64,000 nucleotides of DNA, from assembly GCA_964597035.1 (NCBI GenBank), contig CAZQWM010000008.1:12679-76678 (forward strand). The letters run 5' to 3'. Positions 46,417 through 51,404 of the stretch are shown one piece after another. The DNA comes from an uncultured Pirellulales bacterium. Its GTDB lineage: Bacteria > Planctomycetota > Phycisphaerae > Sedimentisphaerales > Anaerobacaceae. How positions within the stretch are numbered: position 1 is the stretch's first letter; each line of letters begins with the position of its first letter. The translations under genes and the position numbers were made by a program. The notes under the pieces are model-generated. The model was given only the letters and a program-made list of their open reading frames with translations. It was not told where the DNA came from and did not search any database.

Positions 46417-46432
46417 TGCAAAAGATGTGCCC
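46417..46432 (-). promoter_or_regulatory. sigma54-type promoter variant (GGGCAC-N5-TTGCA)
   Basis: The reverse complement of 46417-46432 reads GGGCACATCTTTTGCA. It lies about 40 nt upstream of the fliO start, inside the 220-nt gap after motB'. Confidence 0.55.
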
Positions 46433-46598
46433 GAACGCCCCAAACGCCGCCAATGGCCTTTTTGGGCCAAAATAGCGGTTAGCCGCCTTGGCATTGCTGG
46501 GGGAAAATCAGACGCTTTGTTGAAAAACTTAACGCAGTCGGTATCTGCAATCACATATTCCTGCACGAACCGAAGTTCGCAGCAGGATACTCCTGGAT

Positions 46599-47327
46599 TT
46601 AGCTGTCATTTCTGAGAATTGCAATCAGCACCTGTGGCTGTGCTGAAACTGTTTTATCCCCGTCGGACCACGTGCTCCCCGGCCCGGTCCCCCAGGAATA
46701 CATCGACCATTTCCCCGTCCCGGGCAGATTCGCACGAAGAAAATCTTCAACCGCCTTGCCCCGCTTGGCTGACAAAGCCCATTCCTTATCCCGCGGCTGC
46801 CTGTTGCTGCCCACGCACATCACGCACAACCTCACCTCCTCCGGGCTTTGGTCCTGCTGCAGACCCGTGCAGAACTGCCGAAGGAATCGTTCGGATTGTT
46901 CGTTAATTGTAACCGCCTCGCCCGAAAACTGTATATCCGTCAGGACAAAATCAATCTTGCCGGCGGTTATCGGCGACGGCATGGCGGCTCCGTATGAAGC
47001 TATCTTCTTGACGTTCCGCCTCACCCTCTCGCTTCTCGCGTCTATCGTCCTGCCTTCGGTATCGTCCTCCGGGTCGCTTACCGAATAGTAGTAGTTGGGG
47101 CTTCCGCTGCCTAAGTTTCTTTTGCCCCCGAATCCCGCTTGGAAAGACTCAAGAAACGACCACCCGCCGCCTTCACCTTCATCCAGCAGCGTATCGTCGC
47201 GGACGTGTCCCATACTCACTAAGACCACGAAAAATGCCAGCAGCAAGGCGATTAACGTCGTGAATATGACAATATATGCCGGTGCCTTTGCGACTTCTTC
47301 TACTATTTGACGATGCTGCCGGCTCAT
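46599..47327 (-). CDS. MotB-like paralog lacking the conserved TM aspartate
   Basis: The N-terminal TM region PAYIVIFTTLIALLLAFFVVLVSM aligns with PEWMVTFSDCLTLLLTFFVLLMTF of the adjacent MotB, but has Thr where MotB has Asp. The C-terminus has a weak OmpA/MotB-like trace (ALSAKRGKAVEDFLRANL). Its start overlaps the motB stop (ATGA). Confidence 0.6.
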   Translation of the reverse strand: MSRQHRQIVEEVAKAPAYIVIFTTLIALLLAFFVVLVSMGHVRDDTLLDEGEGGGWSFLESFQAGFGGKRNLGSGSPNYYYSVSDPEDDTEGRTIDARSERVRRNVKKIASYGAAMPSPITAGKIDFVLTDIQFSGEAVTINEQSERFLRQFCTGLQQDQSPEEVRLCVMCVGSNRQPRDKEWALSAKRGKAVEDFLRANLPGTGKWSMYSWGTGPGSTWSDGDKTVSAQPQVLIAILRNDS

Positions 47328-48025
47328 TTGCTTACGTTTTCCCCTAATAGAACTATCTCTATTGTGTTTTCATCTGTCCGGCTGGCGCTATCCTGCCTGC
47401 TTGTCGAAAACGCTCCAGATGCGGCCACGCTCGCCGTTGATATACCGAATCTGCTCCGCTCCAGTCCGCCTTTGGTTGTTAAGTAATCCACCACTGCCAG
47501 CATCCGTGAAGGTCCAATCTGGTCGTCAGCCGGAGACCGTGCAGCCCTGTGTTCGCCTATAATCACGCCGTTGGGCACCTTGTTCAGGTAAGCCGCAAGA
47601 ACGTCCAGAATCTCCCGGCCCTGTGGAGACAATGTTGCTGCCCTCCCCGCAAAAATCTTGCTCGATGGTATCAGAAAAACTCTCGGCGCGTATGGGTCAC
47701 GAAAACCCGTTGTCTCTTTCAGCCAGCCGCCTGGCCCCTGTTCTAATGTCGCGTGCTCACTGCCTTCCAGGGCGCCCTCGACCGGGTCCCTCTTCATAAT
47801 AGTTGCAAGATTGTTGCGGTACATCTGGTCCGCCCACTTGAACCCGGGCATTACCCTGCGAAATGCGTTGCTCAACCCCGGTATGGTCTCAACCCCTATC
47901 GATGAAAACGTCATCAAAAGCACGAAAAATGTCAGAAGCAGCGTCAGGCAGTCGCTGAATGTAACCATCCACTCCGGTGCGCCTGATGTGTCGTCTGCCG
48001 GCGGTGGCTTCTTGTTAAATCCCAT
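47324..48025 (-). CDS. motB: flagellar stator protein MotB
   Basis: PEWMVTFSDCLTLLLTFFVLLMTFSS is the MotB plug/TM motif and includes the invariant Asp. The C-terminal part is short and OmpA-like (GPSRMLAVVDYLTTKGGLERSRF). Confidence 0.85.
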   Translation of the reverse strand: MGFNKKPPPADDTSGAPEWMVTFSDCLTLLLTFFVLLMTFSSIGVETIPGLSNAFRRVMPGFKWADQMYRNNLATIMKRDPVEGALEGSEHATLEQGPGGWLKETTGFRDPYAPRVFLIPSSKIFAGRAATLSPQGREILDVLAAYLNKVPNGVIIGEHRAARSPADDQIGPSRMLAVVDYLTTKGGLERSRFGISTASVAASGAFSTSRQDSASRTDENTIEIVLLGENVSK

Positions 48026-48795
48026 TACACGTTGGCCTTTACTTCTTTGCGTCTGCTCTGCGACACGAATACCTGCATCTTCTCGCGAACTATGGTGGGG
48101 CTTTCTCCCTCGGATACCGCGCAGATTCCCTCCACAATCATCTCCTTGGCCGTAACCTCCGCCTTGGAGTAAAGTCCCAGTTTGCCCGCCAACGGAATGA
48201 AAATCAGATTCGCCGACATCGCCCCATAGAACGTCGTAATCAATGCGACTGCCATTCCGGCCCCGATTGATTCCGGCGAGGTCATGTTACGCAGCATCTG
48301 AACCAGACCGATTAGCGTCCCTATCATTCCGAACGCCGGCGCCGCCGAACCCATAAACTCCAATATCTTCTTGCCCGTCGAATGCCTGTCCTGAAGGTAC
48401 TGGATTTCCATCGACATTATGTCCCTGATTGAATCGCCGTTCTGTCCGTCGACAAGCATTTGTAGTGCTCGACCTAAAAATGCGTCATTGGCCTTGGGAA
48501 TTTCCTGCTCTAAAGCAAGTGCGCCGTCACGCTTGTTGATGGCGGCGTAGTTGACCATAAGCTGAATCAGCTCCGACTGTGAGGGTATCTTGGTCACAAT
48601 CGTTTTCTTGATGACCGAGAATATCCCCACAAACTGCGGCAGCGAAAAGTGTATCATTGTCGCGCAGAGCATCCCGCCTATGGTGATTGCCATCGCGGGA
48701 TAATCGATGAATATCTTCCAGCTTCCGCCGGATAGTATTGCCCAGCCGATTAGTAAAAAACCGAAAATTACTCCTGCTATTGTTGTAGGGTCCAT
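48025..48795 (-). CDS. motA: flagellar stator protein MotA
   Basis: MotA/TolQ/ExbB family: AAPAFGMIGTLIGLVQML...AGMAVALITTFYGAMSANLIFIPLAGKL. The start is placed at the Met at 48795, 2 nt after the upstream stop. The longer ORF to 48978 would overlap the upstream gene. Confidence 0.92.
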   Translation of the reverse strand: MDPTTIAGVIFGFLLIGWAILSGGSWKIFIDYPAMAITIGGMLCATMIHFSLPQFVGIFSVIKKTIVTKIPSQSELIQLMVNYAAINKRDGALALEQEIPKANDAFLGRALQMLVDGQNGDSIRDIMSMEIQYLQDRHSTGKKILEFMGSAAPAFGMIGTLIGLVQMLRNMTSPESIGAGMAVALITTFYGAMSANLIFIPLAGKLGLYSKAEVTAKEMIVEGICAVSEGESPTIVREKMQVFVSQSRRKEVKANV

Positions 48796-48797
48796 AT

Positions 48798-49511
48798 CTA
48801 TTTCTGCTCTACTATTTCTTTTAGTCTCTGACAGAGAACTGCCGTCAGCTTCGGTTCCGTCGCAACCAGCTCTGCGAGAAGCTTCGCCTTGGTCCTCTCC
48901 GTCATATAGAATAAAATTTTCACGGCGTCGTCCATCGCTCCGCCACGCACTCTGCCGGTCTCCACTTGACTGGCACACATGTTACGTATAATTTTGCTTG
49001 CGCTGGCCGGGTCCATCTTGTCGTAGGTGGCCGCTATACTGGCCAGGTTCGCCTTTTCACTCTCTTCTATCTGCGTCCGTGTTTCCAGCAGTAGCTTTCT
49101 CTGCTCCTTAAGGTTCACCACCAGAGTTGCCAGCTCAACGCGTATCCCGTTCAGCTCGTCGATATCGTTCTTTAACGTCTCCTGGGTCATCTGGAGTCTC
49201 GCCTCGCGAACCTCCAGCCCTCTGACCTTGCCCTGGTAATCGTTTATCTTTTCACGCACCTCGTAAACGAGACTGTTGAGCCGTTTTTCACTAAGACCTT
49301 TTTTTGTTTCCCTCCTCTCGGTAATTTGCATATCCGCGGGGAAAACGGCGGTGCTTTCGACCGTTGGCTGTTCGGGCGTTTCAGTTTGTTGGGATGCAGC
49401 CGGCTCCGGCGGTGGCGGGGCGGGACCCAGGAGCATAAACGCCGCCGCAAATGTCACCCCGAAGCTCAAAAGTCCCGCTCCGGCCGCGATTATTATCTGT
49501 TTCTTGTTCAC
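48798..49511 (-). CDS. MgtE-N-like flagellar protein (YlxF/FlbB-type)
   Basis: N-terminal TM segment, a coiled coil, and a C-terminal ATYDKMDPASASKIIRNM...AVKILFYMTERTKAKLLAEL that resembles MgtE-N repeats. Its position after fliJ matches B. subtilis ylxF. Confidence 0.6.
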   Translation of the reverse strand: MNKKQIIIAAGAGLLSFGVTFAAAFMLLGPAPPPPEPAASQQTETPEQPTVESTAVFPADMQITERRETKKGLSEKRLNSLVYEVREKINDYQGKVRGLEVREARLQMTQETLKNDIDELNGIRVELATLVVNLKEQRKLLLETRTQIEESEKANLASIAATYDKMDPASASKIIRNMCASQVETGRVRGGAMDDAVKILFYMTERTKAKLLAELVATEPKLTAVLCQRLKEIVEQK

Positions 49512-49541: not shown

Positions 49542-50030
49542 TCAAATCACGCCGTCCTGCTCTTCTATACCGCCGTCTTTTTTGTCCCTGATACTCTCAC
49601 GCGCAAAACCTACGGTCGCCATCTCGTCAAGCTGCTTCTGTTCGAGTTTGTCCTGTGCTTCAATGAAGTCCTTCTTCGCCTGTTCTCTCAGGCGTTCGAG
49701 ACTCTCCTTGAATCGCCTGATTTTCATCACTTCGGCTATCTTGCTTCTCTGTTGTTGTTCGAGCTTCTCGACGCTCGCTTTGAGCTGCTTGATTCGTTCG
49801 TCCGTTGCCGCCGAATGCCGTAGAAAAAATTCCTGTTTGCCTAATCGGTGCATCGGGTCCTCATTGGCTATTCCATCGAGTATGTCCCGCAGGATTCTCT
49901 GCTGTGAAAGCAGCTCACCGCGTTTAGCCGTAAGTTTCTCTGTTATTGCAAAGAGCTCTTGGGTCTTAATCTGTTCCTGTTTCGTCCTTATATCGAGCAC
50001 ACGCTGCAGGCGCCATACGAATCGCCTCAT
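49542..50030 (-). CDS. fliJ: flagellar export protein FliJ
   Basis: 162-aa coiled coil starting RRFVWRLQRVLDIRTKQEQIKTQELFAI, immediately after fliI. Confidence 0.78.
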   Translation of the reverse strand: MRRFVWRLQRVLDIRTKQEQIKTQELFAITEKLTAKRGELLSQQRILRDILDGIANEDPMHRLGKQEFFLRHSAATDERIKQLKASVEKLEQQQRSKIAEVMKIRRFKESLERLREQAKKDFIEAQDKLEQKQLDEMATVGFARESIRDKKDGGIEEQDGVI

Positions 50031-50048: not shown

Positions 50049-51404
50049 TTAATTACCGAGCAGCCGGTCCCAAGTCTCCGTTATGGCCTTCATCTGGCCG
50101 ACGGTCTCTCGCAGTTCGGTCCTCTGCCGAACCGGCTGCACTAAAAAATTCCTTATCTGGTCAATCAGGGCGATGGCCCCGTCGATTCTACGGTTGCTGC
50201 CCGGCGAAAATGCCCCGATGTTGATAAGGTCCTCGGCGTCGGCGTAAGTGGCGTATATCTCCCGCACTTTTTTCGCCGCCGTTTTGTGCTCCTTGCTCGT
50301 CACCACCGGCATCAGCCGGCTCACGCTTGCTAAAATATCCACCGCCGGAAAATATCCTCGCTCCGCCAGTTTTCTCGATAGCACTATGTGCCCGTCTAAC
50401 AAACTCCTTGCGCTGTCCGCCACGGGGTCCGTCAGGTCGTCGTTTTCCACTAAGACCGTCAGTATCCCCGTAATGCTGCCGTTCTCGGCACGCCCCAGAC
50501 GCTCCACCAGCCGAGGCATTAGTGAAAAAACGCTCGGGCAGTATCCTTTTGTTGCCGGCGGCTCGCCCGCGGCAAGCCCTATCTCTCGCTGGGCCTGTGC
50601 AAAACGCGTCAGTGAGTCCATCATAAATAGCACGTTCCTGCCGCGGTCTCTGAAATACTCGGCAACCGTTACTGCCACAAATGCCGCCTTGACCCGCTGA
50701 ATGGGCGGTGAATCCGACGTCGCCACTATGACCACGCTGCGGGACAATCCTTCCGGCCCAAGGTCATTGTCTAAAAATTCACGAACCTCCCGGCCACGCT
50801 CGCCTATCAGCGCCACCACGTTGACGTCGGCCTCGCTCGAGTTGGCGATGTCGCCTAACAAAACACTCTTGCCGACGCCGCTTCCCGAAAAAATCCCGAT
50901 ACGCTGACCCTTGCCGCACGTCAGCAGTCCGTCTATCGACCGGATACCCAGTGGAAGCGGCTCGCTTATCTTCGTGCGGCTCAATGGCGGCGGACTGCTC
51001 GTGTCAAGCGCCCGCTTGTCGGCTCCCTGCAGCGACCCTTTGCCGTCGATTGGTTCGCCAAGCCCGTTGATGACTCTGCCGAGAATGCCTTCGCTTAGCA
51101 TAATCGTTCGCGGAGTCGTTCTCGCCGTCACTGTGTCGCCGGGCGATATACCGTCTATGTGCGCGAGTGGCAGCAGAATCAAATGGTCTTTTTGAAAACC
51201 GACGACTTCCGCCAGAACACGCCTGCCGTCGCGAATATGAATACCGCACAGCTCACCAAGACCGACTATCGGGCCGTTCGATTCAACAGTCAGCCCGGAC
51301 ACCCTTACGACCGTGCCCTGGCAGTCCAGCAGATTGATTGTATCGAGCGCCGAATGAAGCCGGTCGAAATCTATCACAAACTCTTCTATGCCTTCAGGTG
51401 TCAT
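50049..51404 (-). CDS. fliI: flagellum-specific ATPase FliI
   Basis: Walker A GSGVGKSVLLG, Walker B VLFMMDSLTRFAQAQREI, and SITGILTVLVENDDLTDPVADSARSLLDGHIVLSR. Confidence 0.97.
   Translation of the reverse strand: MTPEGIEEFVIDFDRLHSALDTINLLDCQGTVVRVSGLTVESNGPIVGLGELCGIHIRDGRRVLAEVVGFQKDHLILLPLAHIDGISPGDTVTARTTPRTIMLSEGILGRVINGLGEPIDGKGSLQGADKRALDTSSPPPLSRTKISEPLPLGIRSIDGLLTCGKGQRIGIFSGSGVGKSVLLGDIANSSEADVNVVALIGERGREVREFLDNDLGPEGLSRSVVIVATSDSPPIQRVKAAFVAVTVAEYFRDRGRNVLFMMDSLTRFAQAQREIGLAAGEPPATKGYCPSVFSLMPRLVERLGRAENGSITGILTVLVENDDLTDPVADSARSLLDGHIVLSRKLAERGYFPAVDILASVSRLMPVVTSKEHKTAAKKVREIYATYADAEDLINIGAFSPGSNRRIDGAIALIDQIRNFLVQPVRQRTELRETVGQMKAITETWDRLLGN

Follow-up and report, generated by a model that had tools for sequence, protein, structure and literature searches.

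An Asp-less MotB paralogue retained beside MotA and MotB in a flagellar gene block of Phycisphaerae

The stretch of DNA analysed here (hereafter the window: 64,000 nucleotides of contig CAZQWM010000008.1, from an uncultured planctomycete of the Phycisphaerae) carries a flagellar gene block in which motA and motB are followed by a third, overlapping open reading frame (ORF) at positions 46599-47327. This ORF is best read as motB2, the gene of a genuine second flagellar stator B subunit, in whose membrane helix Thr stands at the position of the ion-carrying Asp. In models of MotAB, PomAB, ExbBD and TolQR, there are two identical B chains whose Asp residues alternate as the A pentamer rotates. 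The locus described here, in which a single MotA is encoded with two apparently old MotB paralogues, one of which seems to have become Asp-less at least three times and yet to be under selection, would thus be a natural experiment on whether a stator needs both of its Asp.

MotB2 matches the Pfam model PF13677 (MotB_plug) with 26.0 bits (gathering score 24) over residues 9-44 of the model's 58, and has no match to the ExbD model PF02472 at E<=1. The helices of MotB (TFSDCLTLLLTFFVLL) and MotB2 (IFTTLIALLLAFFVVL) are 38% identical in the window, and their register is free of gaps since an FF pair lies at +8/+9 from the Asp/Thr column in both. A family profile compared with chains in the PDB places the Thr24 column on the channel Asp of the MotB/PomB chains 6ysf, 8brd and 9luc. 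A first-pass annotation of the window, made from the sequence and a list of its ORFs, had described the three ORFs with their overlapping junctions (TAATG, ATGA), read the residue in question as Thr and proposed that the paralogue could not conduct ions in the canonical way. The ORFs and junctions are as it described, the gap-free register with MotB and the alignment onto the three chains confirm the Thr, and rigorous alignment, which might have brought an acidic residue into register after all, found none. From Lys14 to Arg43 there is not a single acidic residue, and with none in its membrane helix MotB2 is predicted to be incapable of canonical ion transport, as the annotation had supposed.

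MotB2 has the overall architecture of MotB: a short tail in the cytoplasm and a single membrane helix of the MotB type are followed by a linker containing a conserved helix and by a predicted OmpA-like domain. NCBIfam equivalog models for MotB, MotS and MotD give it at best 21.8 bits, against cut-offs of 250-300; the MotB of the window is also under its cut-off (49 bits), as is MotA with the PomA/MotP/MotA models (190-235 bits), and the shortfall appears to reflect divergence of the whole lineage as much as the paralogue itself. By its helix, fold and context MotB2 belongs to the MotB superfamily, but for want of the defining Asp it is better classed as a MotB paralogue of Asp-less type than as MotB. 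A separate peculiarity concerns MotB, whose orthologues (L001-L098) have a near-invariant Cys immediately after the channel Asp (TFSDC; Cys26, 47948-47950, in the window). A Cys beside the ion-binding Asp is unusual among MotB, and MotB2 carries Met or Leu in its place.

The periplasmic part of MotB2 had been taken in the first-pass annotation for a faint OmpA/MotB-like trace, and the Pfam OmpA model does score weakly, with 16.2 bits for MotB2 and 19.4 bits for MotB (cut-off 27.2). An AlphaFold2 model of MotB2, of modest overall confidence (pLDDT 62.5, from a 28-sequence alignment), nevertheless has at its C-terminus a β-α-β-α-β-β domain predicted with pLDDT 70-90. The best Foldseek matches to this domain are OmpA, OprF and Helicobacter MotB C-domains (E 1e-7, target TM 0.66-0.74), so that the trace gives way to what is predicted to be a full OmpA-like domain; the same fold is predicted by AlphaFold2 for the C-terminus of MotB. 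Two motifs stand out in MotB2: the linker sequence G-R-T-x-D-A-x-x-E-R-x-R-R is invariant, as is the Arg of L-S-x-x-R-A-x-x-V in the domain itself, from which the GHTD motif, its Asp included, is absent. It was observed in addition that the OmpA-like domains of both MotB (about 47327-47690) and MotB2 (46602-46967) have kept the Arg and are without GHTD, and in these planctomycetes anchoring to the cell wall may depart from the textbook mode. The idea of a complementary decay, in which MotB would have lost the wall-binding Arg and MotB2 the Asp, was considered and dropped since the family alignment shows that MotB retains its Arg, in a motif that reads G-L-x-R-A-W-A-V in the family and G-P-S-R-M-L-A-V in the window.

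The two paralogues form old lineages. In a maximum-likelihood tree, MotB and MotB2 are reciprocally monophyletic (100/99 and 99/99) with clades that span the same genomes, which argues that the motB duplication is old, and MotB2 is best explained as the product of a duplication common to several Phycisphaerae families. The Asp is kept by most members of the MotB2 family, typically in the form YIVTFSDMVTLLLTFFVMLL (69 of 79 sequences taken from genomes, and about 125 of the 129 representatives in which the helix is present); Thr is a derived state, and Asp loss has been a recurrent event in this family. Thr occupies the column in all 24 distinct sequences of the window's lineage, down to 42% identity. 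Ala is found in L016, L019, L020 and P0038, Asn in P0054 (three cluster members and eight contigs from several sources, with the same operon), and Gly in P0148, which was seen on one contig only and is less secure. The partner MotB has kept its Asp in 81 of the 81 sequences read, those that accompany the Asn and Gly variants among them; the count is made up of 79 orthologues, with transmembrane windows printed for 76, and two partner sequences.

The number of losses was judged from trees of short and divergent proteins, in which many nodes are weakly supported. A tree of MotA, FliP and MotB rejects a single clade of the Thr and Ala lineages (p-AU 0.018), and the variants with Asn or Gly have Asp-bearing proteins as their closest relatives (FastTree, weak support). 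The tree of MotB2 itself does not decide the matter: two changes are required for the Thr and Ala lineages on it, yet their union in a single clade is not rejected (p-AU 0.58). We conclude that there have been at least three independent replacements of the Asp, all on the MotB2 side.

The distribution of the gene was surveyed, as the first-pass annotation had proposed, in a sampled set of 201 Phycisphaerae genomes and a close set of 41 related genomes. About 50 of the 201 have a strong match to MotB2, usually with a weaker match some 650 nt upstream; the gene upstream proved to be MotB in each of the 52 regions fetched. These MotB2-positive genomes belong to the window's order and two further families, other families having a single MotB. 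A scan of 1.84 billion cluster representatives yielded 152 clusters at 50% identity (E<=1e-30). Full-length relatives occur in 19 of the 41 related genomes, with further ones among metagenome proteins, and the order fliJ, flbB-like, motA, motB, motB2, fliO, fliP is found in every related locus examined, which argues that the ORF is not a chance one. In the genome of the window (2.69 Mb, 95% complete), motB and motB2 are the only MotB_plug genes above the cut-off and there is a single flagellar motA, the only other MotA_ExbB gene (on contig 22) adjoining an ExbD gene.

Within the close set, the presence of MotB2 tracks that of fliP, indicating that the gene travels with the flagellum. It is found in 18 of the 21 FliP-positive genomes, the three exceptions all coming from one family whose members have one MotB only, and is absent from all 19 relatives that lack fliP and have uncut flagellar contigs; in a twentieth fliP-negative genome (G004), MotB2 is present and the contig ends inside fliP. 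Disruption in close relatives, which the annotation had named as a sign of a pseudogene, was not seen in any that is flagellated: the frame is intact and full-length in every close relative with flagellar genes, and MotB2 vanishes together with the whole flagellar set, not singly. Two side observations emerged from this survey. No match to fliP, motB or motB2 was found in 14 of the 23 genomes coded as the same genus (e.g. G002, G003, G006-G009, G014-G020), which are 80-97% complete, and much of the window's genus would seem either to have given up flagella or never to have acquired them, with flagellated and non-flagellated species interleaved. On a 49-kb contig from Logan (L101, SRR17021127), which encodes a distant member of the family bearing Gly, motB2 is followed by fliL, fliM and fliN, and only then by fliO. 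This is the classical order of spirochaetes and firmicutes, fliL, fliM and fliN being relocated in the window's lineage.

Loss of the Asp does not appear to have relaxed the constraint on MotB2. Pairwise dN/dS ratios are 0.06-0.17 in the Thr lineage, where synonymous saturation of many pairs makes them rough (L003/L005, the best of the unsaturated pairs, has dS 0.92 and omega 0.12), and 0.14-0.21 in the Ala lineage (dS 0.11-0.19). The corresponding ratios for MotB in the same genomes are 0.10-0.22 and 0.51-0.60, so that those of MotB2 are equal or lower, and Asp-keeping MotB2 give similar values to the Asp-less ones (0.14-0.41). The Asp-less proteins are, to judge by these ratios, under purifying selection. 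Across 14 sequences, down to 35% identity, 35 columns of MotB2 are invariant. The membrane helix is the most conserved part in the Thr lineage (84% mean pairwise identity versus 44-59% elsewhere), a pattern shared with canonical MotB (91% versus 50-59%). A helix that was merely an anchor would be expected to drift, which argues that this one is not.

The helices of the two paralogues also vary together. They are on average more alike within a genome than between genomes (identity 0.593 versus 0.545; none of 2000 permutations reaches the observed value). Six genomes have replaced Leu by Asn at +4 in both paralogues, and another group has a helix of the ISFADMI type in both, the two helices being 69-85% identical. 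The distance matrices of MotB and MotB2 are correlated with r 0.94, and still with 0.84 after regressing out MotA and FliP, against 0.53-0.54 for either of them with FliO. Helix similarity and distance correlation together are suggestive of MotB and MotB2 facing the same MotA. One subgroup deserves mention in its own right. L010, L011 and L012 (from genomes G022, G021 and G011; also G013), L071, L088 and L092 have a very divergent stator set, with MotA only about 60% identical, and include four genomes that share the genus code of the window; their MotB and MotB2 helices are 69-85% identical, with PLWIISFADMISLLMAFFVML in both. This likeness looks like concerted evolution or gene conversion, as in Aquifex.

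How might an Asp-less B subunit be of use to the motor? The reading that we tentatively favour, plausible though falling short of probable, is a heterodimeric axle in a single MotA pentamer (MotA5-MotB-MotB2), in which only MotB would carry the ion. MotB and MotB2 would stand side by side inside the ring; the Asp of MotB would take a proton from the periplasm and drive the MotA ring, and MotB2 would contribute the second helix required to fill the ring, a portion of the plug and another anchor to the cell wall. Since such a structural role needs no Asp, that of MotB2 would be replaceable. This would account for Asp loss on the MotB2 side only, for motB2 never being lost alone, for the continued constraint on its helix and for its translational coupling to motB. 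A non-conducting subunit that mixes into stators had been among the options listed in the first-pass annotation and is thus the one retained here; another, a link to the TPR proteins encoded elsewhere in the window, found no support, as no evidence connecting MotB2 with them came to light. Heterodimeric ABC transporters that retain one degenerate ATP site offer a possible analogy, and a heterodimeric B pair predicted by structure modelling in a homologous motor, AglR5-AglQ-AglS, would be a precedent (PMC11761067).

Several points weigh against the heterodimeric axle. The evidence that MotB and MotB2 would share one MotA ring is indirect, and the helix-similarity and distance-correlation tests are uncorrected for shared ancestry. 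In the current rotary model the two Asp act in alternation, and a unit with one Asp might not turn; moreover, Asp32 mutants of E. coli MotB, which we take to be dominant-negative, would argue against functional mixed dimers. A comparison of MotA and MotB found no compensating change common to the Thr and Ala lineages, and no such MotA change accompanies Asp loss; the changes seen are private to one lineage or another (K109R of MotA in five of the six MotAs of the Thr lineage, Q166L of MotA in the Ala lineage, and F43I of MotB). Finally, as fusions to the periplasmic domain of E. coli, the helix of Aquifex MotB1 and that of MotB2 each work with MotA on their own (PMC4525482), a result that points to alternative homodimers as the likelier ancestral state.

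Were the mixed axle nevertheless correct, a 5:2 motor could run on one carboxylate, with the second chain structural. A bolder version, in which the stator of these Phycisphaerae would be an obligate MotA5-MotB-MotB2 hetero-heptamer and that of the window's lineage would turn on a single ion-carrying Asp, is possible but doubtful. If true, the two-Asp alternation of 5:2 rotary models would not be strictly required, and 'half-dead' stator axles would have arisen repeatedly in nature.

The alternative that survives best, although we consider it unlikely, is that MotB and MotB2 form homodimers in separate MotA pentamers, in line with the assumption made for MotB1 and MotB2 of Aquifex, the Asp-less MotA5-(MotB2)2 being non-conducting and torque-less. 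Such a unit might act at the rotor as a placeholder, brake or clutch, might keep MotA in a closed store, or might be a wall-anchored spacer that sets stator number. The closest known arrangement, motA/motB1/motB2 of Aquifex, in which each B-helix chimera works with MotA alone (PMC4525482), speaks for it, and the retention of Asp in most MotB2 leaves room for an ancestral MotB2 that was itself a functional alternative stator. A unit unable to make torque would take rotor sites from working ones, however, and yet selection on MotB2 is at least as strong as on MotB after Asp loss; recurrent change of the Asp, in at least three or four lineages, without loss of the gene is easier to understand if that residue never mattered to the main role of MotB2. 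Although the conserved linker helix and OmpA-like domain that MotB2 has of its own are as expected of a unit that docks differently, and the conserved membrane helix fits separate units as well as a heterodimer, the ATGA overlap suggests near-equal synthesis of both B subunits, and the tight correlation of MotB and MotB2 distances also counts against separate units. If they did exist, a torque-less stator look-alike would be a new way of regulating the flagellar motor.

It is improbable that MotB2 acts outside the MotA ring as an inner-membrane-anchored, wall-binding scaffold (like MotY, FliL or a collar protein), with its helix merely an anchor. Conservation of the OmpA-like domain and of the invariant linker motif would suit this role, as would the FlbB-like, collar-type gene in the motA-motB-motB2 unit and the fact that the Pfam match (residues 9-44 of 58) ends before the plug part of the model. 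The helix is nonetheless the most conserved part of the protein (84%), with the LLL-x-FFV signature of MotB retained; it varies in concert with its MotB counterpart within a genome, and most members of the family keep a buried Asp that would be costly in a plain anchor. Conduction of an ion in some non-canonical way, for example with the hydroxyls of Thr23 and Thr24 coordinating Na+ or another residue relaying protons, is very improbable. The Thr is invariant (24/24) and its neighbour is Thr or Ser, as though the side chain itself were selected, and polar residues near the Asp matter in Na+ stators, as a report on PomB Ser26 indicates (PMC4398553). Against this, the Ala, Gly and Asn of other lineages cannot bind a cation in such a manner, and the helix has no further acidic residue. 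To our knowledge, moreover, every characterised member of MotB, PomB, ExbD and TolR needs the carboxylate. That MotB2 is a decaying or untranslated remnant of a motB duplicate, as loss of a key catalytic residue and NCBIfam MotB equivalog scores far under the cut-offs might suggest, is scarcely credible in view of the intact frame in every flagellated close relative, dN/dS of 0.06-0.2, 35 invariant columns in 14 sequences, a Thr fixed in 24/24 and loss only together with the flagellar set. The earlier interpretation is partly supported overall: a paralogue coupled to motB and devoid of the acidic residue holds, and the age of the family, the fold of its periplasmic domain and the selection on it are new.

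The features of the locus are collected in Table 1. On the minus strand, the flagellar block runs fliI, fliJ, FlbB/YlxF-like gene, motA, motB, motB2, fliO, fliP, fliQ and fliR. The stop codon of motA overlaps the start of motB in TAATG, and that of motB overlaps the start of motB2 in ATGA; these overlaps, a hairpin about 50 nt past the end of motB2 and, farther on, a GGGCAC-N5-TTGCA element before fliO make motB2 the apparent last gene of a motA-motB-motB2 unit. MotB2 is predicted to be translated from a message common to MotA and MotB. The hairpin and the sigma-54-type element suggest that the stator unit and the export-gate unit would be transcribed separately, and a sigma-70 promoter scan of the stator unit found nothing above chance inside it. 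The product of the FlbB/YlxF-like gene (237 aa) has one membrane helix and a coiled coil; wherever a related locus extends to that point, an FlbB-like gene separates fliJ from motA, and the protein may be a collar-type stator partner. Elsewhere in the genome, the second MotA_ExbB gene forms an ExbB-ExbD pair in an unusual neighbourhood (G000 contig 22, 8812-12165; L045), lying between genes for a von Willebrand factor A protein and ExbD, with an RCC1-repeat protein encoded downstream.

Table 1. Features of the stator locus and its surroundings, in window coordinates.
Feature	Position	Strand	Remarks
fliI	50049-51404	minus	
fliJ	49542-50030	minus	
FlbB/YlxF-like gene	48798-49511	minus	directly upstream of motA; NF047368 collar_FlbB 24 bits, well under its cut-off
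motA	48025-48795	minus	PF01618 99.7 bits; only flagellar stator A subunit of the genome
motB	47324-48025	minus	PF13677 47.8 bits; canonical stator B subunit, channel Asp kept
MotB Asp25 codon (motB)	47951-47953	minus	channel Asp
motB2	46599-47327	minus	242 aa; last gene of the motA-motB-motB2 unit; PF13677 26.0 bits
MotB2 Thr24 codon (ACG)	47256-47258	minus	position of the ion-carrying Asp; read directly from the sequence
MotB2 transmembrane helix, about residues 15-39	47211-47285	minus	predicted helix 20-41
MotB2 OmpA-like periplasmic domain (predicted), about residues 121-242	46602-46967	minus	AlphaFold2 and Foldseek
Terminator-like hairpin after motB2	46533-46549	minus	weak, 5-bp stem
GGGCAC-N5-TTGCA, sigma-54-type element ahead of fliO	46417-46432	minus	consensus match only

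Among known systems, dual stators (MotAB and MotCD in Pseudomonas, MotAB and MotPS in Bacillus, PomAB and MotAB in Shewanella) likewise provide more than one B subunit per motor and hence the possibility of dividing labour. Each of their B subunits is paired with an A subunit of its own and all of them keep the Asp, whereas the single MotA of the window must serve both. With canonical stators of the MotA5-MotB2 and PomA5-PomB2 type, in which the 2 is a subunit count (PDB 6ysf and 8brd; bioRxiv 10.1101/2020.05.15.096610), the MotB2 of the window shares a MotB_plug-type helix, the LLL-x-FFV core, a linker helix, a predicted OmpA-like domain, adjacency to motA and a place in a flagellar operon; it differs from them in being without the Asp, and neither MotB nor MotB2 of this lineage has the GHTD motif of the wall-binding pocket. 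One A gene followed by two tandem B paralogues, in the homologous 5:2 family, is also found in the tonB-exbB-exbD1-exbD2 operons of, for example, Xanthomonas and Stenotrophomonas (PMC3551730, PMC11002078), but these encode a Ton system with an ExbD-type periplasmic domain. AglR-AglQ-AglS of Myxococcus xanthus similarly combines one pentamer of the MotA/TolQ type with two different single-helix proteins of the MotB/TolR type (PMC9389320, PMC11761067). AglQ and AglS serve gliding rather than a flagellum, however, and are TolR-like without a MotB-type OmpA domain; both are reported to have a mid-membrane Asp, and their heterodimer is only predicted, a 2022 review having left open the question of homo- or heterodimers (PMC9389320).

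A literature search found no description of a conserved, selected Asp-less flagellar MotB paralogue, nor of a two-MotB arrangement in Planctomycetota, and a 2025 survey of MotAB diversity gave no match for paralogue, heterodimer or Asp32 in that context. The nearest likeness is with Aquifex aeolicus, where motA, motB1 and motB2 form one operon and the two B subunits differ mainly in their periplasmic part (Takekawa et al. 2015, PMC4525482). The genome of the window likewise has one motA and two motB in an operon, and no second flagellar motA elsewhere. The two Aquifex membrane/N-terminal regions are 97% identical and either chimera drives rotation with MotA, so that both should be ion-competent (PMC4525482), whereas the helices in the window are 38% identical, the duplication appears to be old, with two deep clades, and the Asp of MotB2 has been lost in the window's lineage and a few others. 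The layout of one MotA with two MotB that is known from Aquifex is thus widespread in another phylum too.

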